From assembly GCA_965140415.1 (NCBI GenBank), contig OZ223209.1, positions 1,984,001-2,048,000 on the forward strand: a stretch of 64,000 nucleotides of DNA, given 5' to 3'. The notes under the pieces are model-generated. The model did no database searches. It worked only from the letters and a program-made list of their open reading frames with translations, and was not told where the DNA came from. How positions within the stretch are numbered: position 1 is the stretch's first letter; each line of letters starts with the position of its first letter. This document shows, in pieces, positions 6,235 through 27,024 of this stretch. The position numbers were made by a program, and so were the translations under genes. Origin of the DNA: Myxococcota bacterium (GTDB lineage: Bacteria > Myxococcota_A > SURF-8).

Positions 6235-6663
6235 GAAACCTCTTGATCGGGAGCCTGGCTGTCCGATTGATTCAAAGTGTTACGACATCGCGACGCTGCC
6301 GGTCGCGTACAACTCGGACATTCGCCGGATTCTGTAGCGATGCCCCAAGATACTTAATATCATTTTATCATACTTTATAGAAAGGTTTCAACGGCAATCG
6401 TTGGCTTAAAGCGGGAAAATCTGTGGAAATCGCGAGAAATCGCTCCGCCTGGCGCAGCATCGGCAAGGCAAGCCGAAACCTGCGTGCCGATTACTGCCAT
6501 TTCGACGGTGGACGTCTGGCAGTCCGGGGGAGCAATCCCCCTGTTCCGGCCAAAAGATGACAAACAAAGTCGGTGTGGAAAAAGGTTTGTACTATTTTTC
6601 ATGACCGTGCTATTTTTACCGCACATCAACTTAGTCGAGATCCATTCATGCTGGGGAGTTCAG

Positions 6664-9600
6664 ATGCCGGAAGCGACCGTTTCGATACAGGACTTTATTT
6701 CGCGTTGGAAAACCAGTGGGGCCTCCGAACGCTCCAACTACCAGCTCTTTTTATCGGAGTTGTGCAAGATCATCGGTGTGATGGGACCGGAGCCCAGCCA
6801 GCCCGATAACGAAAAGAACACCTACGTTTTCGAGAAGGCCGTCAGTCAGCACCATGCCGACGGTTCCACCTCGCAGCGTTTCATCGATCTTTACAAGCGT
6901 GGTTGCTTTGTGCTGGAAGCCAAGCAGGGCGCGGAAAAACGCGAGCATGATGAACTTGCCCTGAAATCAAAAAAGCTTAAAACCGGCCACGGTACGCGCG
7001 GCTCGCATGGCTGGGATGTCACCATGACCGCCGCCCGGCATCAGGCGGAAGGGTACGCCAAGGCGCTGCCAGTAGAGGAAGGCTGGCCGCCGTTAATTAT
7101 GGTGGCGGATGTGGGCCACGTGATCGAGGTCTTCGCGGATTTCAGCGGCACCGGTAAGGTCTACCAGCAGTTCCCGGATGCGCAGAACTTTCGCATCTAT
7201 CTGGACGATCTCCAGAAAGATGACGTTCGCGAGCGCCTGAAACTTATCTGGAGCGATCCGCATTCATTAGACCCCGCTAAGCGTAGCGCCGCCGTTACGC
7301 GCGAAGTGGCCGACCGACTGGCGAAGCTGGCGAAAAGCCTGGAAGGCAGCGAGCACGAACCCAAAGTCGTGTCCGAATTTCTCATGCGCTGCCTCTTTAC
7401 CATGTTTGCAGAGGACGTGGGTCTTTTGCCCAAGGACGCTTTTACCCGGCTTCTAGCCGAGTTGAAGGCCGAGCCGAGAAAGTTCCAGCCCATGCTTCAA
7501 TCGATGTGGGCGGATATGGATAAAGGTGGATTCTGCGGCGTGTTGCGCGATACCGTTTTGCGTTTCAATGGCGGCCTCTTTGCCGATCGCACGGCGCTGC
7601 CTTTGACCGGAGAGCAGATCGAACTTTTGGAGCACGCCGCCAAGGCGGATTGGAAAGACGTGGAGCCGCGTATCTTCGGCACCTTGCTGGAGCGCGCCTT
7701 AGATCCTAAAGAACGCCATAAACTGGGGGCGCACTTCACGCCGCGTGCCTATGTGGAGCGGCTGATCGAGCCGACACTTCTGGAGCCCTTGCGCGAGCAG
7801 TGGGAAAACGCCAAAGCCGCCGCGCTGATGGACGCCGACAAGGGCGATTTGAAATCCGCTACCGAGCGCGTCAAGACTTTCCACCGCCTGTTGTGCGACA
7901 CGAAGGTGCTGGACCCGGCCTGCGGCTCCGGCGACTTTTTGTACGTCGCGCTGGAGCACATGAAGCGGCTGGAGGGCGAGGTGCTGACCCTGATGGAGGA
8001 TTTCGGCGTGGAGTCGCGCGGGCTGGAGTTGACCGGCCTGACCGTCGATCCGCATCAGTTCCTCGGCATCGAGATCAACCCCCGCGCTACGGCGATTGCC
8101 GAGATGGTGCTGTGGATCGGTTATCTGCAATGGCATTTTCGCACCAAGGGCAATGTGAACCCGCCCGAACCGGTTTTGCGCGATTTCAAAAATATCGAGT
8201 GCCGCGACGCGCTTTTGGTGTGGGATCGCTGCGAAATCGCCACGGATAAAGACGGCAAGCCCCTTAGCCGCTGGGATGGCGAGACGATGAAGACGCACCC
8301 GGCCACCGGCGAACTGGTGCCGGATGAGACGGCCCGCGTCCCGCAACTGCAATACCTCAATCCCCGCAAGGCCGAATGGCCCCAGGCCGATTATGTCATC
8401 GGCAATCCGCCGTTTCTGGGAAAGGGCGAATTGATACGCGAGGCATTGGGGGACGGCTATGTGGAAGCACTTTGGAAAAATTATCCAGAAATGCCCCGTT
8501 CAGCGGATTTTGTACTGTACTGGTGGAATAAAGCAGCCCATTTGCTGAGAGATGGTAAGCTCAAGCGATTTGGTTTCATCACCACCAACTCAATTCACCA
8601 GACCTTTAACCGGAAAGTCCTTGATAGGCATATGACGGCGAAAGATCCGCTATCCATTCATTTCGCCATTCCCGATCATCCCTGGGTGGATAACACAGAT
8701 GGCGCTGACGTTCGAATTGCTATCACTGTAGCACGAGCTGGGGAATATTCAGGAAACGTAGCAAATATCGAGCGAGAAGTAAAAAGCGACCAAGATACCC
8801 GGATGGTACTGCTTGCAGAAAGCAAAGGAGTAATTCACAGCAATCTGCGTATTGGCGCTGATGTAGGTTCTGCTGTCGCGTTAATGGCTAACCAAAATCT
8901 CAGTTGGAATGGCATTATGACTGCGGGTCGCGGTTTCCTTGTCACGCATGAACAAGCAGAAAAGCTAGGGTTTGGAAAATCGGAGACTCTGAGCAAACGT
9001 ATTCGCCCCTTCATGAATGGACGAGATATCAATCAAACTCCAAGAGGAATGTATGTGATCGATCTTTTTGGATTAGAAATCAAAGAAGTCCAGATGCAGT
9101 GTCCTGATTTGTATCAATGGGTCTACGAAAATGTTAAGCCGGATAGAGATGTAAAAAGGGACAAGAAATTTAGAGAACGTTGGTGGGATTTTGGACGACC
9201 AAGACCTGACTTCAGGAAAGCTACAGAAACCCTTGAAAGATTCATTGCGACGGTTGAAACTTCAAAACACCGAATGTTCGTTTTCCTTTCTTCTGAAATA
9301 TTGCCAGAGCATAAACTGGTGAATATTGCTCTTGATGATGCGTTTTTTCTAGGCGTTCTATCGAGTCGAGCGCATGTATGCTGGGCGTTAGCCTCCGGTG
9401 GTCGTTTGGGGGTTGGTAACGATCCTGTTTATGTGAAATCCAGATGTCTAGACACCTTCCCCTTCCCGGATGCCACGGACGAGCAGAAGGCCCACATCCG
9501 CGACCTGGCCGAGCGCCTGGACGCCCACCGCAAGCAGCGCCAGGCCGAACACGAAAACCTGACCATGACCGGCATGTACAACGTGCTGGAAAAGCTGCGC

Positions 9601-10113
9601 AGCGGCGAGGCGTTGACCAAGAAGGAGCAGCATATTCACGAATGGGCGGCCACAACCGTGTTGAAGGAGTTGCACGACGAGTTGGACGCCGCCGTTTTCG
9701 ACGCCTACGGCTGGCCCGCCGACCTGGACGACGAGGACATCCTGGAGCGGTTGGTGGCGCTCAACCATGAACGCGCCGACGAGGAAAAGCGGGGGGTGAT
9801 CCGCTGGCTCAGGCCCGACTACCAGAACCCGGACGGCCACAGCGCCGCCACGCAGACCGAAGCCGAACTTGCCGAACGCACCCCGGCCAAGGCCAAAGCC
9901 GCCGCCATGAAAAAACGCCCCTGGCCCAAAGCCCTGCCCGAGCAGGTGCAGGCCGTGCGCGAGGTGCTGGCCGAACTCCCGGAAGCGGCCGACGAGGCGA
10001 CCATCGCCAAAGCCTTTAAAGGCGCACGCAAGGACAAGCTTTCCGAAATCCTGGCGACATTGGAAGTTATGGGTGGGGCCAAGCGGACGGATGAGGGTTT
10101 GTGGAGTTGCTGA
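6664..10113 (+). CDS. MmeI-like type IIL restriction-modification enzyme (fused endonuclease, adenine methyltransferase and TRD)
   Basis: IDLYKRGCFVLEAK nuclease motif, LGAHFTP, LDPACGSG (motif I), GNPPF (motif IV), HxxLDxAVxxAYGW tail. Start moved to ATG 6664 after a GGGGAG RBS. Confidence 0.9.
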   Translation: MPEATVSIQDFISRWKTSGASERSNYQLFLSELCKIIGVMGPEPSQPDNEKNTYVFEKAVSQHHADGSTSQRFIDLYKRGCFVLEAKQGAEKREHDELALKSKKLKTGHGTRGSHGWDVTMTAARHQAEGYAKALPVEEGWPPLIMVADVGHVIEVFADFSGTGKVYQQFPDAQNFRIYLDDLQKDDVRERLKLIWSDPHSLDPAKRSAAVTREVADRLAKLAKSLEGSEHEPKVVSEFLMRCLFTMFAEDVGLLPKDAFTRLLAELKAEPRKFQPMLQSMWADMDKGGFCGVLRDTVLRFNGGLFADRTALPLTGEQIELLEHAAKADWKDVEPRIFGTLLERALDPKERHKLGAHFTPRAYVERLIEPTLLEPLREQWENAKAAALMDADKGDLKSATERVKTFHRLLCDTKVLDPACGSGDFLYVALEHMKRLEGEVLTLMEDFGVESRGLELTGLTVDPHQFLGIEINPRATAIAEMVLWIGYLQWHFRTKGNVNPPEPVLRDFKNIECRDALLVWDRCEIATDKDGKPLSRWDGETMKTHPATGELVPDETARVPQLQYLNPRKAEWPQADYVIGNPPFLGKGELIREALGDGYVEALWKNYPEMPRSADFVLYWWNKAAHLLRDGKLKRFGFITTNSIHQTFNRKVLDRHMTAKDPLSIHFAIPDHPWVDNTDGADVRIAITVARAGEYSGNVANIEREVKSDQDTRMVLLAESKGVIHSNLRIGADVGSAVALMANQNLSWNGIMTAGRGFLVTHEQAEKLGFGKSETLSKRIRPFMNGRDINQTPRGMYVIDLFGLEIKEVQMQCPDLYQWVYENVKPDRDVKRDKKFRERWWDFGRPRPDFRKATETLERFIATVETSKHRMFVFLSSEILPEHKLVNIALDDAFFLGVLSSRAHVCWALASGGRLGVGNDPVYVKSRCLDTFPFPDATDEQKAHIRDLAERLDAHRKQRQAEHENLTMTGMYNVLEKLRSGEALTKKEQHIHEWAATTVLKELHDELDAAVFDAYGWPADLDDEDILERLVALNHERADEEKRGVIRWLRPDYQNPDGHSAATQTEAELAERTPAKAKAAAMKKRPWPKALPEQVQAVREVLAELPEAADEATIAKAFKGARKDKLSEILATLEVMGGAKRTDEGLWSC

Positions 10114-12845: not shown

Positions 12846-12992
12846 GGATGCACGCCTATATCATGGGTTTATCAAAGATGCAACTGGAGATTTTCAAATG
12901 CTCCAGAATGATTAATAATATTAGGAATTACGGAACGCTACAAGAAGTTACGGAACGCAACAAAATTAATGAATTTCGGTTCATGTTAAACC

Positions 12993-13020
12993 TTGACATG
13001 AAATCTAACAGGAATATAAT
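12993..13020 (+). promoter_or_regulatory. Consensus sigma70 promoter upstream of the Cys-rich gene cluster
   Basis: TTGACA (12993-12998), 16-nt spacer, TATAAT (13015-13020), AT-rich upstream region. Confidence 0.8.
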
Positions 13021-13142
13021 CAAGTATCGGATCTTTTGTAGGTTCGCCACGGGCCTGCCGAAGTAAATCATGTGGAGATCATTACGAAAAGCCCTCGTGT
13101 GTCTCTGGTTTTTTATGTTGAGGGACGGAAGGAAGAGTTGTG

Positions 13143-14234
13143 ATGCGAATGGCGAATTACGGATGGTGCAAGTATGGCATGATGCTGGCCTTGTTGCTCG
13201 TTGCCTCTCTGGCGATGCTGCAATGTGATGATTCCGGATCCACGGGTGTTGATGGCGACGACACCACTTCTCAATGTGTTTCGCATCAGGATTGCCCCAT
13301 CGGTTTCTCCTGTAATATAACCAGTGGCGTTTGCGGTCAGGATCCTTACGCGGTGCTGTGCACCTCGGATGTCGATTGCAACGTCGATTATACCTGCTAC
13401 ATTTCAGCGGATTCGCTGGATGGCACCGGCAAATGCGTTCCGATTACCGTTGTTGACGGCGATCCGAATATCGGCGATGGCGATACCAGCACGGGATGCA
13501 CGACGGATGACCAGTGCGAAGCCACCGAGTTCTGCTATCAGGGAACCTGCCAGGACAAGAACCCCACCTGCACCGGCAATGCCGATTGCTGGCCGGGTCA
13601 GTATTGTGATCCCACCGATGGCATCTGCAAGGGTGAGATTGTGATTGATGGTGACAAAGACACGGTCGATGGCGATCCGGATGCGGTGATCGATGGCGAT
13701 GATGACAACGTCGTAGACGGCGATCCTGACACGGTTGACGGTGATGAGGATGAACCGGTCGATGGTGACATTCCGGTCGGTCAGCCCTGCGATCGCACCA
13801 GCGACTGCCCCGTTGGCTCTGTCTGCGGCCCCTCGGGTGTCTGCATCGAGCATTGTCAGACTTCCGGTTGCACGGCTCCGGCCCACTGCAACCCCAACAA
13901 TGGCTACTGCGAATACTGTGATCAGACCTGCGCTGCCAGCCAGTGCTGCAACTACAACGTGGACTTCTGGTACTGCGGCGGCTGCTGTGTACCTCCCTGC
14001 TCCGCGGGTAACGCCTGCCAGGCGGGAACCTGCATTCCGTTGCAGTGCCCCACCTGCTCGCCGGGTGAATACTGCGATGGCGCCAACACCGGTTACATCT
14101 GCGTGGACGATCCCACTCAGGACACCGGCGAAGGCGAGCGCGGCAACGTAAGCTGCCTGCCGGCCAACTCCGCCTGCATCGAAGGCGTGGACATCTGTTG
14201 CAGTGGCACCTGCCTGATGGGCACCTGCCTGTAA
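13143..14234 (+). CDS. Secreted Cys-rich protein (probable lipoprotein) with DGD linkers and a C-terminal knottin-like module
   Basis: Signal ending in MLQC; C-x4-D/E-C repeats; VDGD repeats; CCNYxxDFWYCG module; terminal C-C-CC-C-C. Confidence 0.85.
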   Translation: MRMANYGWCKYGMMLALLLVASLAMLQCDDSGSTGVDGDDTTSQCVSHQDCPIGFSCNITSGVCGQDPYAVLCTSDVDCNVDYTCYISADSLDGTGKCVPITVVDGDPNIGDGDTSTGCTTDDQCEATEFCYQGTCQDKNPTCTGNADCWPGQYCDPTDGICKGEIVIDGDKDTVDGDPDAVIDGDDDNVVDGDPDTVDGDEDEPVDGDIPVGQPCDRTSDCPVGSVCGPSGVCIEHCQTSGCTAPAHCNPNNGYCEYCDQTCAASQCCNYNVDFWYCGGCCVPPCSAGNACQAGTCIPLQCPTCSPGEYCDGANTGYICVDDPTQDTGEGERGNVSCLPANSACIEGVDICCSGTCLMGTCL

Positions 14235-14257
14235 TCGCACACAGCGCATAAACATGC

Positions 14258-14294
14258 AAAACCGGCGAGTCTTTTCGGCTCGTCGGTTTTTTTT
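14258..14294 (+). terminator. Rho-independent terminator
   Basis: ACCGGCGAGTC / GGCTCGTCGGT stem followed by a long T run. Confidence 0.85.
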
Positions 14295-14401
14295 GTTGAA
14301 CCGATTGTATGTAAGCTGTTACACTTCTTTCATCTGCAACAAGTACAACACATTCGCATCGATATCGAATCCTTGGTAGCGCTGTAGGAAAGGAGCGAAA
14401 G

Positions 14402-15751
14402 ATGGGCCATTTCAAAGGTATTGCATGGCGTTTGGCCGCTTTGCTGATTTCTGGAATTGTCGTAATCGGCTGTTACGATCAGACCTCTTTGACCTTTGGA
14501 GCAGGTGATGAGGATACGGCACCGGGCGGCTGCCGGACCGATCTCGATTGCCCGGAAGGATACTCCTGCGATGCCGATGGGCAATGCGTGCAAGATCCTT
14601 ATGCCAACGGATGCAGCGAAGACAGTGATTGTGTGAGTGGATACGAATGTGTTATCGATCCGAAAACAGGGGAGGGTATCTGTCGCCTGCTGGTTGATGG
14701 CGATGTGGAACCGGAATGCGTGAAAGACGAAGATTGCAGTACGGGGATGATTTGCGTACAGGGAGAATGCCGGATCAAGCGAGATTGCGAGCGCGATGCA
14801 GACTGTCCCCCCAATTTCCGATGTAACCAGCAGACTTGGCAGTGCGAAGAGGTTATTGGTCCTGTCGATGGGGATTTCGATGCGGACCTGGAGCTGGAAC
14901 TGGAACAGGAAGAAGATGCGTTCCCACTGACCTGTCAAGGCACGGCTAATTGTCCGGTTGGATATGTGTGCAGCTTGGATGGAATCTGCATTCCAAGCTG
15001 CGAGCAGACCGGTTGCTTGTATGGCATCTGCAATGTCGAAAGCGGTTTGTGTGAATACTGCGATCCGCCTTGCCCGGATACCCAGTGTTGTAATTACGCA
15101 TTCGACTTTTGGTACTGTGGAACATGTTGCCGACCGCCCTGTCCTCCAAATCAAGTTTGTCAAGCGGGTGACTGTATCAGTGTCGAATGCCCACCTTGTC
15201 CGCCGGGGCAAATATGCGGAGCTGAAACCGGCTTTATCTGCATGGATATCATCCAACCGGATGGCGACGTCGAACAGGATGCGGACCCGGACCTTATACC
15301 ATCGTTCTGCCGGTCTACTGAGGATTGTCCACGCGGGTATGTTTGCAACGAGCAGGGCAAGTGCGAACCTTCTTGCATCCTGACCGGCTGTGAATTCGGC
15401 ACCTGTAATACGAACACCGGAGAATGCGAATTCTGCGATCCGCCTTGTCCGGATGGAAGGTGCTGTAATTACAACATGGATTTCTGGTATTGTGGAAGCT
15501 GTTGCAATCCTCCCTGCGAAGACGGCATGGCTTGTCAGGGAGGAGCCTGCATTCCCCTGCAATGTCCGCGTTGTCCGCCCTGGCAGCAGTGTGGACCGGA
15601 AACCGGGTATGTTTGCGAGGATATCTGGACCGATGGCGATGTGATCTGGGGAAAACAAGGCAAAACAACGTGTTTGCCGGCAAATTCCTCCTGCATCGAA
15701 GGCGTGGATTTTTGTTGCAGCGGCACCTGTCTGATGGGCACCTGCCTGTAA
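14402..15751 (+). CDS. Cys-rich lipoprotein, paralogue of 13143-14234, with two CCNYxxDFWYCG modules
   Basis: Lipobox VIGC; QDPYA motif and C-terminal 26 aa shared with the upstream gene. Confidence 0.85.
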   Translation: MGHFKGIAWRLAALLISGIVVIGCYDQTSLTFGAGDEDTAPGGCRTDLDCPEGYSCDADGQCVQDPYANGCSEDSDCVSGYECVIDPKTGEGICRLLVDGDVEPECVKDEDCSTGMICVQGECRIKRDCERDADCPPNFRCNQQTWQCEEVIGPVDGDFDADLELELEQEEDAFPLTCQGTANCPVGYVCSLDGICIPSCEQTGCLYGICNVESGLCEYCDPPCPDTQCCNYAFDFWYCGTCCRPPCPPNQVCQAGDCISVECPPCPPGQICGAETGFICMDIIQPDGDVEQDADPDLIPSFCRSTEDCPRGYVCNEQGKCEPSCILTGCEFGTCNTNTGECEFCDPPCPDGRCCNYNMDFWYCGSCCNPPCEDGMACQGGACIPLQCPRCPPWQQCGPETGYVCEDIWTDGDVIWGKQGKTTCLPANSSCIEGVDFCCSGTCLMGTCL

Positions 15752-15833
15752 ACGTCGAATAGTGTAACGAGTTGACTTTCCTTTGTGAAAACGGGTTTAT
15801 ATGGGCGAATGGTCGGCGAAACGTCCGGTTTCG

Positions 15834-16002
15834 TCCGGTTCTCGCTTACAATGATGGGGTGCATCACAAGAAGTTGCAAATCTGTATGATTATAGGGTGG
15901 CGCGGGCTAAGCCGCAGGCTTGCCCGTGTTCGAGGGACACATGGGCAAGCTCCGTTTCTCTTCGCTTGGCCAATGCCACCCATCCGGTTCTCGCTTACAA
16001 TG
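15834..16002. repeat. 20-bp direct repeats flanking a long imperfect palindrome (REP-like)
   Basis: TCCGGTTCTCGCTTACAATG at 15834 and 15983; GGGTGGC...GCTTGCCCGTGT/ACATGGGCAAGC...GCCACCC at 15895-15981. Confidence 0.7.
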
Positions 16003-16099
16003 CGGAATACATCGGAAAATTGGTTTACACGGCGGCGGATTCGAGCTAGCATACAAGATGGTTTTTGGAACGCCTAACTGTAAGTGATAGGAAGAAGAT

Positions 16100-17911
16100 A
16101 TGTTCAAATCGAGGTGGATAACTGCTGGTTGTATTTTCATATTGTTGTTCATAGCGGGTTGCAATGGCAACGACACGAACATGATTTTCACCGATGGCGA
16201 CGAGCAGATTCCCGCAGACGGCGACGGGGATTTGGATGTGCCGGAAAACGAAATCGACCAGGAAGTCATTCCTTGTGAAGAAGGCGAGCTACTCTGCGAA
16301 GATGACAGCACCCTGCTGGTATGCAATGCCGAGGGAATCTGGGTATTGAAGAAGGTTTGTGAGAACGGCGAAAGCTGCATCGATGGTAGTTGCCAATCTC
16401 CGCTACCCGACGGCGACAATCTCCTGCCGGATGGCGATGACCCACAGCCCGATGGCGATGACCCACAGCCCGATGGCGATGACCCTCAGCCCGACGGCGA
16501 CGATCCTCAGCCCGACGGCGACGATCCACTGCCGGATGGCGATCAGGTCGTTCATTGTGTGGAACATACGGACTGTGCCTATGGTATGGCTTGCAATCCT
16601 ACCGGTGCCGGTGATGGCTGCGAAATGCGCATGGCGTGCAACGAAGATGCCGATTGCGAGAATCCGCGCCTGATGTGTGCTGAAATGGAAAACTGGAAGG
16701 AATGTGCACCCACACCGGATGAATGCATGGAAGATGACGAATGCGAGTTCGGCTTTGCCTGTCAAGAGGGAGAAGACGGCTATAACGATTGCGTAGACAC
16801 CAACGAGTGCGCATTGTCTACCGACTGTGACGAGAATATGGTGTGCGTCCAAACGGATACGCGCTGGGTGTGTCAACCGGATGGCCAGGCTTGTACCGAG
16901 CATAGCGACTGTGAATTCGGCTACGAATGTCACACCGAGTTCGAGCAGCCGATCTGTTTGTATGCCAGCGAGTGTACCGTCGATGCGGATTGCCCTTCCT
17001 ATCAGCGTTGCCAGGTGGAAGAAAACTGGAAAGCCTGCAAGATCGATTTCAATGCGTTCTGTCAAAGCGATGCCGATTGCGAGTTCGGCGAAACCTGCGA
17101 CATTCTATTTTCCAATTACGGTTCCTGCAAATCCATGAACATCTGTACTTCCGATCGCGAATGTCCGACCGGTTTCGAATGCGAAAGTAACGGAACCTAC
17201 ATGGATTGCGTTGAAGTTGCCCCCTGCGTAACCGATGCCGATTGCGGTTTCGGATTCCGTTGCGTAGCTCAGCAGCCGAAAAACCTTTGTGAATACGCCA
17301 ACCAGTGCAGTTCCGATGCCGATTGCGGCTATATGCAGGAATGCGCCGTCAGCGGCAATTGGACGAGTTGTACCACGCATTTCCCGGATGTGTGCACCGG
17401 CGATGATAGTTGCGCCGAGGATGAATACTGCGACACGCTACTGGGACCACTGGGCGAGTGCCGCTCGAAGAGCCAGTGCTTCGTCGATGAGGATTGTGGC
17501 GAAGGGATGGCTTGCGAGAGCAACGGTACCTTCAATGAGTGCGTGGCTGCCGACCCGGATGCCTGCTGGTTTGATTTCCAGTGCCAGGAAGACTGGCTCT
17601 GCCTGGACAATACCTGCAAGCCTCAATATGAAGGAATGTGTACGGATATCGAGGGCTTGTGGACGGTCTGGATTTCCGACTGCACCTTGATCATGACCGG
17701 CCAGACCTATGAATTCGTTCCGAAAGACGGATGCAACGGGGACATTCGCCTGGGTGATACGCAAGTTCCGGCTGGTTCTTTCGATGAAACGTCTACCAGT
17801 CATTACGATCTGACGATTGCTCTTGTGTTGCAATGTACTTCCGAAGTGACGCTGAACACCGTGATGTCGGTTGATTGCGGTAGTTGCACTGTGCAGTTAG
17901 GTCGGCTGTAA
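16100..17911 (+). CDS. Cys-rich repeat lipoprotein with a PDGDDPQ tandem repeat
   Basis: Lipobox IAGC; more than ten C-x4-[DE]-C-x4-C repeats; beta-rich C-terminus. Confidence 0.85.
   Translation: MFKSRWITAGCIFILLFIAGCNGNDTNMIFTDGDEQIPADGDGDLDVPENEIDQEVIPCEEGELLCEDDSTLLVCNAEGIWVLKKVCENGESCIDGSCQSPLPDGDNLLPDGDDPQPDGDDPQPDGDDPQPDGDDPQPDGDDPLPDGDQVVHCVEHTDCAYGMACNPTGAGDGCEMRMACNEDADCENPRLMCAEMENWKECAPTPDECMEDDECEFGFACQEGEDGYNDCVDTNECALSTDCDENMVCVQTDTRWVCQPDGQACTEHSDCEFGYECHTEFEQPICLYASECTVDADCPSYQRCQVEENWKACKIDFNAFCQSDADCEFGETCDILFSNYGSCKSMNICTSDRECPTGFECESNGTYMDCVEVAPCVTDADCGFGFRCVAQQPKNLCEYANQCSSDADCGYMQECAVSGNWTSCTTHFPDVCTGDDSCAEDEYCDTLLGPLGECRSKSQCFVDEDCGEGMACESNGTFNECVAADPDACWFDFQCQEDWLCLDNTCKPQYEGMCTDIEGLWTVWISDCTLIMTGQTYEFVPKDGCNGDIRLGDTQVPAGSFDETSTSHYDLTIALVLQCTSEVTLNTVMSVDCGSCTVQLGRL
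16406..16545 (+). repeat. 21-bp coding tandem repeat, about 7 units (PDGDDPQ)
   Basis: Variants of cccgatggcgatgacccacag repeated in frame. Confidence 0.9.
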
Positions 17912-18080
17912 CAGCTAGAATTTGTTACGAAAATTGTTTTTTGCGCGGCTTGTCTCTTCATGAGACGGCAAAGGTGTTTTCGGTTACGATGTCAGCGGCG
18001 TCCCCTTGACTTTTTTTGTCGACGGGGCTAGTGTGGCTTCGTAGCCTGAAGATAGAAATCGGTATTGCGAGGTAACGAGG

Positions 18081-19331
18081 ATGACACGGAAATTCCAGAA
18101 CTGGATAGGTCTTTTGCTGGCTATGTTGCTGATCGTCACCGGGGTTGTGTTGGCCTGCTCCAGCCTCGATTCGGGTGCATCGTCGGTTACGATTGGGCAT
18201 AGTTGTACCAATCTTGCAGATTGTTCCTACGGAGAGGAATGCGTAACCTATGGTGTTCGTTGCGACGATGCCGGGGAAAATTGCGAAGGCGCCTCGCTTT
18301 GCGTACCTCAATTCTGTGTAACCCATGCCGATTGCATCAATACCGACGAAATGAAATGCTGCAAGGGCCAGTGTGCCGACCGTGAAGCCTTTTGCGATGG
18401 TCCCTGCCAGGATAACAGCGATTGCGAAGAAGGGCTCTGTGTGGCGGGCGTTTGTACGAACATTCCGGGCGTTACCGGCGGCAGTTGTACAACCATCGAC
18501 GATTGCCCGGAAAATACGGTCTGCGTGGCCGGGCTGTGCATTGCCAATCCCGGTATCGATGGCGGCCAGTGCGACGATGATTCGGATTGCGAATCGGGAA
18601 ACTGCACGATGGGTTTCTGTACGCAGAGTGAAGGCCAGGATGGTCGTTGCGAAACGGCTGCGGATTGTACGGAAGAGGGTGCGGTCTGCGTGTTGGGACT
18701 GTGCATCGGTGGGAATTCTTCCATCGAATGTCAGAGCGATGAAGATTGTTTGCCGGGACAGAGTTGTGAAAATGGAACCTGCGAAGGCGATGTCGTGCTG
18801 ACCTGTGAAGTAAATGACGACTGCCCCAGTGGTTTTTACTGCGCCAGCGGCTTGTGTCGCCCGGAAATCACCGATTCTTGCATCCTGGATGAAGATTGCC
18901 AGGAAGGTCTGGTCTGCACGGAAGGGCAGTGTTTGCCTGAAGGTGTGGAGCTATGTGAAGATGATAGCGATTGCAGTAACGGTGCAACCTGCATTGCCGG
19001 TTTCTGCTTGGGCGGCGACAATCCCAGCGACGGTCGCTGCGAAGACGATTACGACTGTCCCGAGGGTGAAAGCTGTCTGATGACCTTCTGCGTGGAAGAC
19101 GGTCAGACTCCCGATACCTGCGAAGACGACTGGGATTGCCTGGGCGGAGAGCGCTGCATTCTTGGCGTTTGCATCGGCACGCCCCAGCCGGGTGGTCCCT
19201 GCCAGACCAACGATGACTGCTACAACGGCATCTGCCTGTTCGGTCAATGTTGGGGTTCCGGTCCGCAAACCTGTGAATCCGACTACGATTGTCCCACTGG
19301 ACAGGAATGCATTCTGCAAACCTGTATCTAG
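18081..19331 (+). CDS. Cys-rich repeat lipoprotein
   Basis: Lipobox VLAC; almost entirely C-x4-DC-x3-5-C-x2-G-x-C repeats. Confidence 0.85.
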   Translation: MTRKFQNWIGLLLAMLLIVTGVVLACSSLDSGASSVTIGHSCTNLADCSYGEECVTYGVRCDDAGENCEGASLCVPQFCVTHADCINTDEMKCCKGQCADREAFCDGPCQDNSDCEEGLCVAGVCTNIPGVTGGSCTTIDDCPENTVCVAGLCIANPGIDGGQCDDDSDCESGNCTMGFCTQSEGQDGRCETAADCTEEGAVCVLGLCIGGNSSIECQSDEDCLPGQSCENGTCEGDVVLTCEVNDDCPSGFYCASGLCRPEITDSCILDEDCQEGLVCTEGQCLPEGVELCEDDSDCSNGATCIAGFCLGGDNPSDGRCEDDYDCPEGESCLMTFCVEDGQTPDTCEDDWDCLGGERCILGVCIGTPQPGGPCQTNDDCYNGICLFGQCWGSGPQTCESDYDCPTGQECILQTCI

Positions 19332-19395
19332 GTGAAGTAAATTAAACTTCTTGTTCTTGCATGACCTCCCGGTAGTCTCATTTCGTGAGCTTCAT

Positions 19396-19456
19396 TGGTA
19401 GGGCAAATGTCCTGCCCGACACCAATCGGAATTGTCGGGTGAAATCACCCGACCTG
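19396..19456. repeat. REP-like double-hairpin element, copy 1
   Basis: GGGCA..TGCCC and GTCGGGTGA/TCACCCGAC hairpins; 19-nt core identical to 21619-21637. Confidence 0.6.
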
Positions 19457-19735
19457 TAACTGGCTTTGTGCCGACAAAGGTAGATCGAGCAAACAGATCG
19501 TCAATAGGATTGCAATCATCACGGTTACAGGCATCCGCATCTTTCACCTCATTCCATAATCGAAGGTGGTCCATTTTAAATAACAGCATGGTTACAAGAA
19601 TTTGTTACAAGAATTCGAATTGTGTTTTAATCGGTATTGATCTTAAATTTAAAAGATTATGATTTGCTTCAAGCATATAATCCTCTCTGTTTCATCGGAT
19701 AATATCCAATAAATAGTTCAAGAAAATTCACATTG

Positions 19736-21325
19736 TCAGGGAAACCGGATGCAGATTGTTTTTCGATCAAACGCTAACCAGACACTTCGATCTCCTCGCC
19801 ACACCCGGGCCTTCGTAATATAATTTACCGACACTTTATATTCCCATCCTTCATCGCAACCTAAGCCTACCCAACTATTAAATATAAAAGACTCTGTTTC
19901 CATATTCGCTGAGCTAAGGGATTCCAGAAAATAAAACCTCATATGGAGTAAACACATTTCTGGCCACCAAAGGCTCTCTATTACAATATCAATTGTCATC
20001 AATGGCCAGCCGCCCATACCGAAAGTCGTAACCAATCTGTCATCGTTTTCGGATTCAGGCACTGGCAGCAAATCGTGATAGGACGTGGTTTCTCCACTAA
20101 TCGGGTTATAGTGGATTTGATCTTTCAGCGCCCGATAATCGAGGCCGCTGTCATCCGGAAAATGCCTGGAGATCCACAGACCGTTTTCATCGACGCCGAT
20201 CAGGCGCGAAAGATCTTCTCCGAAATCGGTTCCAAAGTCGCGAATCGAGGTGCAATCGGTAGCTTCGGGTGTCAAAGCATAGAGCCGGTTGCCACCCATT
20301 AGGTAATAGGTTTCTCCGAACCAGTAACCAACTTCGTTGAACTGCGCCAGCATGTCCTCGCAGGGCGGGACGCGGTTCCAAGCTTGTGTAGTGGTGAAAA
20401 AGAAATGAGTGGAATCGTATTCCCGACCAGTTTCATAGACGCCAGTATTGGAAGCGTAAGCAACGTTCAGGGCAACGACCGCGCCTTGCACCTTCAGGCT
20501 GTAGGGATGTTTCACTTCTTCAACGCCTTCTGAATCGATGGCTGTTTCGTTCTGCACGAGATCAGCGGGTAGATCGAAAAAGCTCCATTCGCCTTGAACC
20601 AGGCGTCCGAGCCGGGTCGCCGTCGCGATCCAGATTTCCACCTGGCCTTCCAGCAAGCGACCATCCAAAGAAAAGACTTCCTCATTCACCCGTTCGTCGC
20701 AGCGCAGTTCGTTACTGGCTTCATCGTATTCCCAGAAACGATTGCCTGCAAACCAGGTTTTACCTGCATCATTTGACCAGACATCCAGAGCGTTGAAAGC
20801 TCCGCCACCCTCACAGCGAACGACGGTGGTATCTTCAAAAGGAAAGGTGTCCATACTCAGGTTCAGGGCTTCGATATCCGGTTCCTGGTCCATCTCGGAG
20901 GCACTATCCGATTCGGTTTCCACATCCGGTTCGAGCTCGATATTGTCCACATTGTCCGGGTCGGCGTCGAGTTCCAAGGTGTCTCCGTCCGTTTCCGGTG
21001 TTTCGTTATCGAGATCATGATCGCCATCCGCATCGGAATCGCCATCTGTATCTGTATCGCCGTCCGAATCCGGATCGGCGTCCCGGTCTCCATCCACCGG
21101 TGTTTCATCCAGATCGGCGGGGGGAGGATCACTATCGGGAAGGTCGGCGTCCAAATCTCCATCGGAAGAATTCTCACGATCAACGAGTTCCGTATCCTGG
21201 TCGGCGGGCGGCAGGTCGCCATCCGTCGAGGAACCGTCGTCCGAGCAGGCAGGCAACAGCAGTAAGCAGACAAGCAGGAACCACACAATCCCAACGCACT
21301 GCTTCTTGTGGAGAATGGGTGACAT
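19736..21325 (-). CDS. Lipoprotein with a long DGD/acidic linker and beta-rich C-terminal region
   Basis: Lipobox LPAC-SDD; CAGGAGG RBS; about 125-aa Asp-rich linker. Confidence 0.8.
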   Translation of the reverse strand: MSPILHKKQCVGIVWFLLVCLLLLPACSDDGSSTDGDLPPADQDTELVDRENSSDGDLDADLPDSDPPPADLDETPVDGDRDADPDSDGDTDTDGDSDADGDHDLDNETPETDGDTLELDADPDNVDNIELEPDVETESDSASEMDQEPDIEALNLSMDTFPFEDTTVVRCEGGGAFNALDVWSNDAGKTWFAGNRFWEYDEASNELRCDERVNEEVFSLDGRLLEGQVEIWIATATRLGRLVQGEWSFFDLPADLVQNETAIDSEGVEEVKHPYSLKVQGAVVALNVAYASNTGVYETGREYDSTHFFFTTTQAWNRVPPCEDMLAQFNEVGYWFGETYYLMGGNRLYALTPEATDCTSIRDFGTDFGEDLSRLIGVDENGLWISRHFPDDSGLDYRALKDQIHYNPISGETTSYHDLLPVPESENDDRLVTTFGMGGWPLMTIDIVIESLWWPEMCLLHMRFYFLESLSSANMETESFIFNSWVGLGCDEGWEYKVSVNYITKARVWRGDRSVWLAFDRKTICIRFP

Positions 21326-23739: not shown

Positions 23740-26700
23740 TTAGGGCAGACAGAGTGTATCGTAATCCACATCAATCGTGCTTCCACCTGGCGGTTCCTGA
23801 CCTTCCGGGTAAATGATGCTGTTGCTGTCTTCATCATACTCCCAGGTGTTGTCGATCACACCGTCGACCTTGACCACGATGGTATCGGGATCGGCCTGGC
23901 GGGTTAGGAAGAACTGGTTGAAGAGCACGAACAGGTTTTCGGCCATGGTGTTGAAAACATCATCGAAGGAATCTTCGCAGATCGACTCGAAATGCTCGTT
24001 GTCGTGGCGGTTGCAGGCGTCGGAGACTTCGATATAGCGCGGTCCTGCAGAGGCGTCGCCGGTATTCTCGTTCTGGCAACCACCGGGATCGTCACCGACG
24101 ATGGCGTAGGTTTCGATCATCGAAGTGTTACGCATACCTTTGATGCTACGCAGAAAATCGATGAAGAAGGGCACTTCCGAAGAGGAATTGTCCGGTTCAT
24201 CACTGACGAAAATGATCGACAGTTTGGCTTCATCGCGCAGGAATCCGGCATTCTCGTTGCTGATCAAAGGTTCAGACAAAGCCAAGTGTGCGGCTTCCAG
24301 ACCGGCTTCCGTATTGCCGTCGCAACTGGTACCCAGTTTTACGCAGTCTTTGAATTCGCTCTTGATTTGAGCGTCCGTGAGTGCATCGGGACCGGAGTTG
24401 GACAATACTGCCGGAGAACATTGCAGTTTACCGGAATGATCCGGGTCCACGATGTCCATGGAGGTGACTCCGATGTGCAGATCGACCGCACCTTCACCCC
24501 ACTGAAGGGCGTCGTTGATGAAGTTATCGAAGTTGTCTGCCAGATTGTCCTGCTCTTCCTGCATCGATCCGGAACAGTCGACCACCCACAGAATGTCCAC
24601 CATGGGGTATTGGTTCTGGGTGAAGTGATCGGTCGCATGACTGAGCAGCGTACCTTCGCCCTGTAGCGGTACAACCAACTGTGCGTTGTTTGCATCGTCG
24701 CTTATAATTTCCACACGTCCTACATGTGGTCCTTCATGGCTTGGACAGAACTTGACTTCAAAAGAGAAGCTCTGTGGATGCCCACCACCCAAGGTAATCG
24801 GGAAGTCTCCCTGTCCAGGACCGCTAACGATTTCAAAACGCTCGTCACTACCGGCACCAATTTGCATATCGGTGATGGTCAATTCAAGGTTACCTACGTT
24901 CCAGACCTTAACTTCTTCCGCCCGCGAGCAGCACTCCAGAGTTACCAATCCGAAGTCCAATTTGGATGGAATAACTTCGATTCCGCGCCGTGCACCAACA
25001 CCTTCGATTCCGACGACGGTCGGCACCGTCGGGTCCGGCACGAAATTCGGATCCAGCCACATCAGTTTTTCAGCATTGGTGAAGAACTGGAAGCCTGCGG
25101 TATAGCGGGAATTCTCCGTGGGAGGTGTGAAGGTGATGTTGACGTAAATCGTTTCGCCACGTTGCAGGGTATAGTCATGGAAACTGCCGTAATCTTCGTA
25201 GAAAGGCCGCGGTTCGATCATTGCAGGTGGGAAGTCGTACAGCGCGTTCCAAGCCAGACCGGTCACGCTTAAAGGAAGGTCACCGCAATTGCTGAAGGAT
25301 ACCTGCCGCGTGTTGGGAACATTCATTTGCGAATAACCGAAGTCGATACCGGGACCGGGAACATCGCCAAAGCCCCAAATACCTGAAGAGCCGTCCAGCG
25401 GTTGCACGTCAAGGCAAGCCGGCTGACGCTCGGTGACACAACCCACCAGGTCCACCTGGATCTTCTTTTCCGCCTGATCTTTGTCAAGCCACACGACTTC
25501 CATAAAGCCAACCTGCTGGCTGTCGTAGGGATGTACGTTTTCAATCGGTTTGTAGTTTACCGTGATGGCTTGTGCGCCACTTGCGTCCAGGGAAAACGGG
25601 GGTTGGTTTTCCGGGGTCCATTCGATGGTGTATGCGCCGTTGGAATCGTCGAGCATATTGACAGCTACAACCTGAGCCGTGGCGCAACCGGTATTTTTGA
25701 CCAGCACGTATTTGCGGTTGTCGAAGCCAGGGGCCTGGCAGCCGTAGCTGATCGCAGCCCGTTCCACTACTATCTGGGGAACACACTTGGCTTCCGAAGA
25801 CAGTCGAAGGCGCGTAATCGGTTGGCTGGGATCATCGGTCAGTAAAACCAACATGCCTTGCTGCGGCTCATCTCCTTCTGGAGCGAATTCCACAATCAGG
25901 TCTTCATCCAAGCCGGAAGCAATCGATTTGCCATCGGGCCAATCATCGGGATTGGCTAAAGAGAACTCGGTACTTGTTTCAGGTGTAAAGAACAACCCTT
26001 CGATATTCAGTGCCCCGTCTCCGTTATTGGACACGCTGACTTCCTGGTATTTGATTTCACCCGCAGACACGGCACCGAAACGGAACTCGGTAGGACGTAC
26101 ATCGATGCGTCCTGTACCTGCCGCTTGTTTGGGGGTCAGCGTAATGGTGCAGTTGTCATTGCAATTCAGTACAACAGTGTCGTTGCCGCTATTGAAGTTG
26201 CCCGTACAGGTTTTTCCGTTATCGGTTTCGATGGATGAACCGGTTACTTCACCTTCAATGCTCTCGCCTCCGTAGTAGAAGACCACGTCGCAAGTTGTGT
26301 AATCGACGACGACATAGGTGTCGTGATTTTCAACCGAACCGCAGGCGAATTCACCATCGTACAGACCCGTGAAATCTTCACAACCTTCAGTTTGATCTCC
26401 ATCAGGGGTCGTATCTCCATCAGGATCATCGGTACCGTCACCATCTACCGCGTTATCCTGATCGCCATCCGGGCCGATGCTTAACACACAGATGCCGGTA
26501 CCGGCGCAATAGGGCTTGGATGTTCCATACCAGCTTGCGCATTCCGTGTCGGTCTGGCAGTTTCCATGTTCCACGCAAACCTGACTGATCAGATCACAAG
26601 TGGGATTGGTACCGATGCAGTCGGCATTGGATGTACAACCCGTATTCGACGAGTTGTCTCCATCTGGTATTTGGTCGTCACCGCTACTGTCGGAACAGGC

Positions 26701-26766
26701 GGTAAAGAAAAACAAGACCAAAACGACAGACGCCAACCATAAGGTCAGGGTTTGTGTACGGCTCAT
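23740..26766 (-). CDS. Large lipoprotein: Cys-rich N-terminus, DGD linker, about four ASH/choice-of-anchor-D-like Ig domains, C-terminal vWA domain
   Basis: Lipobox FTAC; repeated (L/I)DFG...V.(V/F).N.G...L.I pattern; DILWVVDCSGSM MIDAS motif, FLRDEAKLSIIFVSDE. Confidence 0.85.
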   Translation of the reverse strand: MSRTQTLTLWLASVVLVLFFFTACSDSSGDDQIPDGDNSSNTGCTSNADCIGTNPTCDLISQVCVEHGNCQTDTECASWYGTSKPYCAGTGICVLSIGPDGDQDNAVDGDGTDDPDGDTTPDGDQTEGCEDFTGLYDGEFACGSVENHDTYVVVDYTTCDVVFYYGGESIEGEVTGSSIETDNGKTCTGNFNSGNDTVVLNCNDNCTITLTPKQAAGTGRIDVRPTEFRFGAVSAGEIKYQEVSVSNNGDGALNIEGLFFTPETSTEFSLANPDDWPDGKSIASGLDEDLIVEFAPEGDEPQQGMLVLLTDDPSQPITRLRLSSEAKCVPQIVVERAAISYGCQAPGFDNRKYVLVKNTGCATAQVVAVNMLDDSNGAYTIEWTPENQPPFSLDASGAQAITVNYKPIENVHPYDSQQVGFMEVVWLDKDQAEKKIQVDLVGCVTERQPACLDVQPLDGSSGIWGFGDVPGPGIDFGYSQMNVPNTRQVSFSNCGDLPLSVTGLAWNALYDFPPAMIEPRPFYEDYGSFHDYTLQRGETIYVNITFTPPTENSRYTAGFQFFTNAEKLMWLDPNFVPDPTVPTVVGIEGVGARRGIEVIPSKLDFGLVTLECCSRAEEVKVWNVGNLELTITDMQIGAGSDERFEIVSGPGQGDFPITLGGGHPQSFSFEVKFCPSHEGPHVGRVEIISDDANNAQLVVPLQGEGTLLSHATDHFTQNQYPMVDILWVVDCSGSMQEEQDNLADNFDNFINDALQWGEGAVDLHIGVTSMDIVDPDHSGKLQCSPAVLSNSGPDALTDAQIKSEFKDCVKLGTSCDGNTEAGLEAAHLALSEPLISNENAGFLRDEAKLSIIFVSDEPDNSSSEVPFFIDFLRSIKGMRNTSMIETYAIVGDDPGGCQNENTGDASAGPRYIEVSDACNRHDNEHFESICEDSFDDVFNTMAENLFVLFNQFFLTRQADPDTIVVKVDGVIDNTWEYDEDSNSIIYPEGQEPPGGSTIDVDYDTLCLP

Positions 26767-27024
26767 GAAACAACTCCTTTAGCAGTAAACTTATGCATTT
26801 GGTATGGGCGAAACCCGTGGCGACGAACTAGATAGTAAAACTCGACTGCGTAAAGCTAGAATACGCTGTCAGTTTCTTTACTTATTATCAATTAATGTGG
26901 TCCCTTGTCAAGCGTTACAGTACTATATAGTGTATCGCGTAATAGTGTATCGCGTAAACCATAGATCACCCTGTTTATCATACAGGTGATCTAAAGGGGG
27001 TATGTCTTACAGATACTGTCGGAC

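Follow-up and report, generated by a model that had tools for sequence, protein, structure and literature searches.

Acidic, disulfide-rich predicted lipoproteins of a Myxococcota genome with a conserved 22-cysteine module and a knottin-like C-terminal tail

Introduction

Bacterial secreted cysteine-rich repeat proteins (SCREPs), composed of repeated, independently folded disulfide-rich domains, are already known as a class (PMC6262176), and so are the sequence-predicted "bacterial knottins" listed in the KNOTTIN database (PMC5753296); according to both sources, bacteria do have such sequences, and for no bacterial knottin is there an experimental structure. In Myxococcus xanthus, the Cys-rich repeats in the protein TraA have been proposed to act as a rigid stalk (PMC3325183). 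The present work deals with four adjacent genes of this general kind (genes 1 to 4, in their order along the DNA), located in a 64,000-nucleotide stretch of the genome of a Myxococcota bacterium (assembly GCA_965140415.1, contig OZ223209.1, positions 1,984,001 to 2,048,000 of the forward strand; hereafter the window, to which all plain coordinates refer). In particular, it deals with a 22-cysteine module, named here after its DFWYCG motif, and with a short C-terminal tail, both carried by genes 1 and 2.

An initial annotation, made from the letters of this stretch alone, had seen in it a promoter-headed array of secreted repeat proteins and had interpreted the array as a highly expressed, modular, disulfide-cross-linked surface coat, adhesin or prey-contact system. 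The analysis reported here partly confirms that observation and partly supports that interpretation. The explanation which we favour, with modest confidence, is that the four genes encode separately transcribed, acidic, disulfide-rich lipoproteins of a stalk-and-tip type, and that the tip of the gene 1 and gene 2 proteins binds a conserved partner. In the open literature searched, nothing was found on the module, the tail or their lipoprotein context.

Results

Composition and export signals of the four predicted proteins

The four genes and their predicted products are the following:

13140-14234 (+), gene 1: predicted acidic lipoprotein of 364 residues, with an MLQC signal, a stalk of four-cysteine repeats, an Asp-rich linker, one 22-cysteine module and a knottin-like tail
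14402-15751 (+), gene 2: predicted lipoprotein of 449 residues (VIGC), with repeats, module A, module B and tail
16100-17911 (+), gene 3: predicted lipoprotein of 603 residues (IAGC), with a PDGDDPQ tandem repeat, about 13 four-cysteine units and a 97-residue C-terminal domain of unknown type
18081-19331 (+), gene 4: predicted lipoprotein of 416 residues (VLAC), with about 14 units C-x5-C-x5-C-x4-C; member of the DUF7107/EB/Dickkopf_N group

As the initial annotation had stated, the genes are co-oriented and hold dozens of cysteines each (46, 67, 66 and 61 in genes 1 to 4, that is 12.6, 14.9, 10.9 and 14.7% of the residues). Inspection of the translations showed, in all four, a hydrophobic N-terminal signal ending in a lipobox-like cysteine, so that the signal peptides ending in cysteine which had been noted are moreover of the lipoprotein type. 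Signal peptidase II substrates have the lipobox consensus [LVI][ASTVI][GAS]C, which is fitted by VIGC, IAGC and VLAC (genes 2, 3 and 4), the MLQC of gene 1 being atypical; all four products are predicted lipoproteins. The mature proteins have an isoelectric point of about 4, with 60-132 acidic and merely 6-19 basic residues. Following the lipobox cysteine, the four proteins contain 44, 66, 64 and 60 further cysteines, an even number in each case, and a script count gave an even number in 26 of 28 homologues as well (in the two odd ones a later cysteine had been picked than the lipobox of the alignment). These even counts fit with complete disulfide pairing. The DNA contigs of run X1 agree with the assembly, with no other letters over 12900-15922, 15952-16459 and 16456-19400.

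A module family found in one order of Myxococcota

The module comprises 22 cysteines within about 105 residues and occurs, as initially described, once in gene 1 and twice in gene 2 (the DFWYCG motif lies at residue 275 of gene 1 and at residues 235 and 360 of gene 2). That description captured the motif and a module of about 110 residues, and left unmentioned the 26-residue tail, which is the most conserved part. The parts of the two genes are:

13275-13628 (+), gene 1, N-terminal cysteine-repeat region: residues 46-163, 30-43% identical in relatives, with a weak DUF7107 match
13629-13775 (+), gene 1, Asp-rich linker: residues 164-212, cysteine-free and of VDGD type (the gap between cysteines is 53 residues)
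13788-14102 (+), gene 1, DFWYCG module: residues 217-321 with 22 cysteines, delimited by alignments and by a confident AlphaFold2 model (score 94-96), without Pfam family
14154-14231 (+), gene 1, C-terminal tail: 26 residues, C-x6-C-x6-CC-x3-C-x4-C-L, inhibitor-cystine-knot-like
14933-15241 (+), gene 2, module A: residues 178-280, with no tail behind it
15308-15616 (+), gene 2, module B: residues 303-405
15671-15748 (+), gene 2, knottin-like tail: residues 424-449, 92% identical to the gene 1 tail

A third gene of the family, with one module, lies in the same genome but outside the window, 2.7 Mb away (G000:C1:4716660-4718003). When 5.8 billion protein clusters were searched by a word index, a module family of 31 proteins came out, genes 1 and 2 included, all of them without Pfam domain and named only "hypothetical protein". 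A profile search of 1.84 billion representative proteins returned 40 matches at E<=1e-3, a number that falls to 34 clusters at the stricter E<=1e-10 and to 24 at E<=1e-30. A survey of 185,579 species genomes confirmed members at 14 loci in eight metagenome-assembled genomes (MAGs), whose titles all name Myxococcota, Myxococcales or Deltaproteobacteria. The initial annotation had proposed to follow the taxonomic spread of the motif; across 400 genomes sampled from the phylum, the family was present in all nine others of the same order (1-7 matches each) and in none of the remaining 391. Judged by these searches, genes 1 and 2 and the third copy are members of a rare family that does not extend beyond one order.

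Over module and tail, 26 cysteines are invariant in 30 aligned proteins and the other two are at least 90% conserved. The invariant residues other than cysteine are N39, N59, E46, Y66, L128, G137, G144, G149 and L152, and conservation of at least 90% was additionally found for N42, G43, F64, W65, G68, P73, G118 and seven residues of the tail. The module had not been recognised initially, and this stands: residues 213-327 of gene 1 match no Pfam family at E<=1 and nothing in NCBIfam, the profile of the family alignment (A1) found only Draxin (E 0.026, N-terminal repeats) and EETI-II (E 0.068) among the sequences of the PDB, and a protein atlas search gave weak leads only (0.83, to Stig1-like and DUF7107 clusters, under the meaningful level).

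Three architectures can be told apart in the family. In the first one (300-460 residues), a lipobox is followed by cysteine repeats, an Asp-rich linker, the module and the tail; genes with this build often stand in tandem pairs, as do genes 1 and 2 and those at two loci with relatives (L002 and L006). In the second, a lipobox and an acidic stretch precede a tail-less module near the N-terminus, after which 400-750 residues without Pfam family follow (L014, 622 residues; L015, 963 residues). The third consists of giant proteins with leucine-rich (LRR) and Dicty_CTDC repeats, bearing module and tail at their end (L008, more than 2153 residues; L009, 1458 residues; L010). By these builds, the module is a mobile tip domain in the relatives. 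We claim no order of duplications, because the module tree is poorly resolved (three of its 14 inner branches are well supported). As a separate observation on the second architecture, the remaining 400-750 residues of its two members (L014:5644-7512 and L015:5635-8526, from two related MAGs) resemble repeated beta-rich units.

Predicted structure of the module

With the family alignment as input, AlphaFold2 modelled module and tail with a mean predicted local distance difference test score (pLDDT) of 90.3 and a predicted template-modelling score of 0.67, the module scoring 94-96 and the tail 86-89; the linker residues 121-124, the only part with a pLDDT below 50, are floppy. The structural checks which the initial annotation had suggested gave no solved fold as a match. 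A Foldseek comparison of the module model with the PDB found none at E<=1e-3, VIA-align placed none of 48,161 chains at Z>=2, re-alignment of the chains matched by Foldseek itself placed none of 339 at this level, and a viral structure library gave none at E<=1e-3 and template-modelling (TM) scores no higher than 0.22. The module fold is therefore likely to be unlike solved structures, and a new fold is likely and not proven, because aligners score small, loop-rich disulfide proteins poorly.

One local likeness was found, at the start of the module: its first 25 residues (C-x5-C-x5-C-x5-C, containing "SDCP" and "VCGP-G-C") resemble EETI-II with a Foldseek probability of 0.97, a target-normalised TM score of 0.74, a root-mean-square deviation (rmsd) of 1.4 and 44% identity. 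A protease-inhibitor reading of this first sub-domain was considered and rejected: since one of the six cysteines of the inhibitor is absent in the alignment and the protease-binding loop falls outside the match, the sub-domain is better taken as a generic four-cysteine unit. A complex prediction of module residues 1-112 against the last 40 residues gave scores of 0.10 and 0.00 (mark 0.32), which is no evidence either way on contact between the two.

The knottin-like tail: conservation, likenesses and what it may do

In every family protein with the common architecture, the C-terminus reads C-x6-C-x6-CC-x3-C-x4-C-L, directly followed by the stop codon. The 14 tails compared have the consensus CLPANSxCxEGVDxCCSGTCLMGTCL, with a mean column identity of 82%, and the spacing of the C-C-CC-C-C pattern is kept in 13 of them, the remaining one having x7 in the second loop. 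The tail is the best conserved part of the family (amino-acid identity of 0.77, compared with 0.52 in the module core, 0.42 in the first sub-domain and 0.28 in the linker), and its nonsynonymous change (pN) is the lowest of any region. As synonymous sites are near saturation (pS 0.55, and 0.44-0.76 among the three copies of this genome), this conservation reflects purifying selection and not recent gene conversion. The net charge is -2 to -4 in all 14 tails, none of which is cationic.

A search of the PDB sequences with the tail profile gave 12 matches at E<=10, all to disulfide-rich peptides of 26-37 residues: bidentatide (the best, E 0.0042), kappa-conotoxin PVIIA, mu-agatoxin-I, omega-conotoxin MVIIC, ADO1, pB1, and jingzhao-, hainan- and theraphotoxins. 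Over the last 40 residues of gene 1, the Pfam Conotoxin family (PF02950) reached 17.6 bits, below its cut-off of 25.1 (E 0.0077, at profile positions 42-75 of 75, the mature-toxin end). A separate AlphaFold2 model of these 40 residues had a pLDDT of about 91 in the tail, and 17 of its 18 Foldseek matches were knottin-type peptides (target-normalised TM score 0.29-0.76, rmsd 1.0-4.3, every E-value 0.55 or worse). The omega-conotoxins MVIIA and FVIA aligned with it over all 25 residues (rmsd 1.3-1.5, target-normalised TM score 0.65-0.76). The tail is thus knottin-like by pattern, by weak sequence similarity and by predicted backbone, its membership of the knottins being unproven; a true knot has disulfides I-IV, II-V and III-VI, the last of which threads the ring.

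On a bolder reading, which we consider unlikely, module and tail would form an undescribed extracellular domain that originated within a single Myxococcota order, with a core of novel fold and, at its end, a true inhibitor cystine knot (ICK) with the cysteine framework of the omega-conotoxins; this knot, whether displayed at the tip or cleaved, would itself be the active part, a ligand of some conserved receptor, channel or enzyme. If true, a knottin family would for the first time have been shown to act from a bacterial lipoprotein.

Less probable again, and in our judgement decidedly unlikely, is that the large protein is a mere carrier, from which the 26-residue knottin tail is cleaved and released as a stable bioactive peptide (toxin, antimicrobial, channel blocker or protease inhibitor). 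The C-C-CC-C-C pattern speaks in its favour, as do the 12 PDB matches (mostly ICK toxins of cone snails and spiders), the Conotoxin match over the mature-toxin part, the predominance of knottin-type structures among the Foldseek matches, the flexible linker ahead of the tail and, in most homologues, an arginine or lysine at most six residues before the first tail cysteine (judged by eye in alignment A1). However, each of these sequence and fold matches is sub-threshold, the basic residue is not invariant and the tails are uniformly anionic, while their loops are conserved and not diversified, when those of venom and defence knottins are usually variable. Furthermore, no free-standing tail-bearing protein of 30-199 residues was found (in a search that relied on shared 5-mers and is hence weak), and neither a peptidase nor an exporter gene is among the conserved neighbours.

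Module and tail, or the tail alone, could instead serve as a sorting or anchoring tag which directs or fastens passengers to a component of the envelope or matrix, an idea to which we give only a slim chance. Its strength lies in the position of the tail, always at the extreme C-terminus, in its conservation, far better than that of the passenger, and in its presence on builds as different as small cysteine-repeat lipoproteins and giant LRR/Dicty_CTDC proteins. Yet 1-7 copies per genome are few for a sorting system, and the tail has neither the hydrophobic helix nor the basic cluster of the MYXO-CTERM and PEP-CTERM kind. Moreover, wherever the tail occurs in the genome of the window and in the relative loci examined, the module accompanies it, a tail-less module occurs near the N-terminus of other proteins, and no conserved processing gene was found among the neighbours.

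Cysteine repeats and the affiliation of genes 3 and 4

The general unit of the four genes consists of four cysteines, C-x5-C-x5-C-x4-9-C. The more specific repeat initially proposed for all of them (C-x4-DC-x4-5-C-x3-5-C) has exact counts of 1, 3, 0 and 11 in genes 1 to 4; the units of gene 3 (about 13) are looser, C-x5-C-x5-C-x8-9-C. Gene 4 matches DUF7107 (PF23416; 94.8 bits over eight stretches), EB (PF01683; 41.7 bits) and Dickkopf_N (PF04706; 33.3 bits), all above the Pfam gathering cut-offs (24.6, 24.3 and 25 bits, respectively). Below those cut-offs remain DUF7107 in genes 1, 2 and 3 (18.5, 19.0 and 14.3 bits) and Dickkopf_N in genes 2 and 3 (16.4 and 10.7 bits). TIGR04201 (Myxo_Cys_RPT) likewise stays under its cut-off of 25 bits in genes 2, 3 and 4 (18.3, 15.0 and 14.5 bits), with no match in gene 1.

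Gene 3 has 16 other matches with 42-52% identity, which come from uncultured Myxococcales-type bacteria and mostly cover nearly the whole protein. Dickkopf_N is pre-annotated in 15 of these 16, and the full-length ones carry Dickkopf_N/DUF7107. By these matches, genes 3 and 4 are to be regarded as ordinary members of the DUF7107/Dickkopf_N-like repeat class. For the 97-residue C-terminal domain of gene 3, the protein atlas search gave weak leads only (0.81 or less, under the meaningful level). Gene 3 contains in addition the following feature:

16406-16543 (+), tandem repeat of 21 nt, 5.6 copies, coding for PDGDDPQ

One contig of run X1 bears small deletions (3+1+2 nt) at 16483-16506 of this repeat, which indicates that the tract is heterogeneous in the sampled population. 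A feature of gene 4 may also be recorded here, namely a single stretch C-x5-C-x7-CC-x3-C-x6-C at residues 79-105 (18315-18395), which is a second knottin-like cysteine framework amid the regular four-cysteine repeats.

Oxidative folding and the metal/redox alternative

A scan of the genome for cysteine-rich acidic open reading frames (ORFs; at least 150 residues, at least 7% cysteine, at least four cysteine-repeat units and few basic residues) gave 83, most with a lipobox-like signal and several in small clusters. The genome also holds one VKOR match, in a 404-residue frame outside the window (G000:C1:4501176-4502303 (-)), fused to a DsbA-like domain, and five Thioredoxin_4 (DsbA-like) matches, three of which are in tandem in one 658-residue frame, likewise outside it (G000:C1:2245874-2247607 (+)); no DsbB was found in it. 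The initial annotation had suggested a check for expanded Dsb machinery. For a genome with about 83 cysteine-rich exported proteins, this VKOR/DsbA set is unusual oxidative-folding equipment. Together with the lipobox-type signals and the even cysteine counts, the VKOR-DsbA fusion and the further DsbA-like domains bear out the view that these proteins have an exported, modular, many-disulfide build.

We see a slimmer chance still for the possibility that these proteins, rich in cysteine and Asp, form no disulfide scaffold and instead take up metal ions (Ca2+ through the Asp spacers, thiophilic metals through the cysteines) or buffer redox stress in the envelope. Such a role would suit proteins with 11-15% cysteine and 60-132 acidic residues each in mature form, and a context which looks anaerobic, with hybrid-cluster protein and ferredoxin genes within the window. 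It is opposed by the even cysteine counts (four of four genes, 26 of 28 homologues), by cysteine spacings of knottin-like and Dickkopf-like type, by AlphaFold2 models that are compact and confident without any metal, and by the VKOR and DsbA-like genes.

Promoter, leader and transcription units

The transcription signals found around gene 1 are the following:

12923-12962 (+), two tandem 20-nt direct repeats (repeat search), 31 nt upstream of the gene 1 -35 hexamer
12993-13020 (+), sigma-70-type promoter TTGACA-16-TATAAT, 12 of 12 positions matching, about 120 nt upstream of the gene 1 start
13044-13053 (+), leader motif TCGCCACGGG, about 25 nt downstream of the gene 1 -10 hexamer, also in the leaders of L002a, L002b and L013
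14258-14290 (+), intrinsic-terminator-like hairpin between genes 1 and 2 (14 pairs, 7 of them G-C, loop of 5, then a T run)

The promoter had been read as the head of the whole array. Its hexamers are confirmed at all 12 positions, but, because the terminator-like hairpin stands 3' of gene 1, it appears to head gene 1 only. The spacers between genes 1-2, 2-3 and 3-4 are 167, 348 and 169 nt long, and the best promoter-like matches upstream of genes 2 to 4 reach only 8-9 of 12 positions; the four genes are probably transcribed separately, as far as can be told from their sequence. The idea of a single operon, that is, one highly expressed four-gene coat or prey-contact system, draws on four adjacent, co-oriented genes with a perfect consensus promoter at their head, and is scarcely credible given the hairpin, the long spacers (the second with a dispersed repeat element in it), about 83 similar genes scattered elsewhere in the genome, and an array that is not conserved, gene 3 or gene 4 relatives being found by tblastn within 6 kb of gene 1/2 relatives at none of 13 loci. 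With gene 4 as query, tblastn gave two weak matches only, both inside module-family genes themselves.

Nine of the 14 genes of the family have, within 300 nt upstream, a promoter match of at least 10 of 12 positions (that in L011 is a second perfect one), against a background of 52 in 2000 random 300-nt windows (2.6%) from the same loci. This contrast is somewhat inflated, since the start codons of the family genes in the relative loci were chosen by ourselves from ORF lists and intergenic DNA is richer in A and T.

The tandem direct repeats at 12923-12962 are a possible regulator site; their 11-nt core TTACGGAACGC has only four occurrences in the whole genome. The leader motif TCGCCACGGG is also present, with two letters different, in the L003 leader, and is possibly an element that the leaders of genes for exported proteins have in common. 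It is not diagnostic, because the 9-mer is too frequent genome-wide (113 matches). The fold of the gene 1 leader is nothing special (z -0.61), and an Rfam search gave two tRNAs only.

Three side observations concern the non-coding DNA. A second copy of TCGCCACGGG lies at 26814-26823 (-), 48 nt upstream of a 1008-residue ORF with Ig-like domains (23740-26766). The spacer between gene 4 and the divergent lipoprotein gene that follows contains two direct repeats of 12 nt (GTTACAAGAATT) at 19591-19615, which may be a regulator site. The gene 2-3 spacer holds a dispersed repeat of about 125 nt (15857-15981), with 77 further copies in the genome (81-94% identity, both strands), at which the contigs of the DNA runs break and the summed depth rises from about 38 to about 1450. 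It folds as a long hairpin (-56.6 kcal/mol, z -3.9, none of 200 shuffles as good), is flanked by identical 20-nt direct repeats (15834-15853 and 15983-16002) that look like a target duplication, and resembles miniature inverted-repeat transposable elements (MITE) or repetitive extragenic palindromic (REP) elements, without an Rfam match.

Neighbouring genes

The genes near the array are of housekeeping type: FtsK, an M23 peptidase, an MmeI-type restriction enzyme, a GNAT acetyltransferase, an enoyl-CoA hydratase, YhbY and two tRNAs. The MmeI-type enzyme (6484-10113 (+), 3 kb upstream of the array) is a fused restriction-modification protein of 1209 residues, with MmeI_N, helicase spacer, methyltransferase and target-recognition domains. 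At 19736-21325 (-) lies the gene of a 529-residue lipoprotein with an LPAC lipobox, a 130-residue Asp-rich spacer and a C-terminal domain without Pfam family. It has a paralogue with 66% identity at G000:C1:644522-646057, and shows no relation to the domains at the C-terminal ends of L014 and L015.

Discussion

In the explanation that we favour, the four proteins would be exported by Sec and then lipidated at the lipobox cysteine, and their thiols would be oxidised in the periplasm by the VKOR/DsbA-type system. The strings of four-cysteine units, together with the Asp-rich spacers, would form a stiff, negatively charged stalk, at whose far end the gene 1 and gene 2 proteins would present the 22-cysteine module, a short flexible linker and the 26-residue knottin-like tail. 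Module and tail would together be the working tip and would bind, on the cell surface or beyond it, a conserved partner (in adhesion or ligand capture). A conserved partner is favoured over a fast-evolving or arms-race target, because the loops of the tail vary little, all 14 tails compared are anionic, and purifying selection is stronger on the tail than on any other part of the protein. Lipidation, disulfide pairing, surface exposure and binding are steps that we infer. The larger unit assumed initially, one four-gene system, is not upheld: relatives of genes 3 and 4 are missing from all of the loci with gene 1/2 relatives that were searched.

Several points weigh against this explanation. 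Sequence alone cannot separate surface exposure from a periplasmic location. In gene 1, and likewise in about 12 of 27 homologues (xxQC), the lipobox carries Q at position -1; since this residue is not canonical there, the lipidation of this subgroup is unsure. When all neighbours were compared with each other, a response-regulator-like group (seven ORFs at four loci) was the only one to recur besides the family, and no partner is named by it. Finally, the organism may be an anaerobe, for which so extensive a use of disulfides is less to be expected, and metal binding thereby stays in play.

Cysteine-rich stalk lipoproteins are abundant in Myxococcota, and function is known for almost none of them. 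The present analysis sets the ordinary genes 3 and 4 apart from a small, sharply bounded family, formed by genes 1 and 2 and the third copy with their relatives. If the tail is a real cystine knot, this family offers a tractable bacterial knottin and a natural scaffold for peptide engineering; if it is a structural cap only, the result is a new domain annotation of modest interest.

Comparison with known systems

SCREPs and "bacterial knottins" are broad classes and not families, and this module, its tail and the lipoprotein context are not described in the accessible parts of the sources on them. Among the short cysteine-rich extracellular repeats are DUF7107, Dickkopf_N and EB, all three of which gene 4 matches, while genes 1 to 3 share the four-cysteine unit and stay under the cut-offs; the DFWYCG module and the tail are covered by none of them. 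The start of the module has a local likeness to the squash-type trypsin inhibitor EETI-II (PDB 1h9h and 1w7z), with E-values that are not significant, and differs from it in being an incomplete knottin, one of the six cysteines being absent. The tail shares the six-cysteine order C-C-CC-C-C with ICK peptides (omega- and kappa-conotoxins, spider toxins and plant knottins such as bidentatide), which its predicted backbone may also resemble. Unlike these, it is anionic, has conserved loops, is not free and forms the end of a bacterial lipoprotein, and the scores are sub-threshold; the likeness may be convergent.

A parallel in general build is that with TraA and the TIGR04201 proteins, which, like the proteins described here, are myxobacterial envelope proteins whose tandem cysteine-rich repeats are presumed to be a rigid stalk presenting a binding domain (PMC3325183). 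The polarity of the two systems is nevertheless opposite: TraA has a C-terminal MYXO-CTERM anchor and an N-terminal PA14 domain, whereas here the predicted anchor is an N-terminal lipobox and the special domain is C-terminal.

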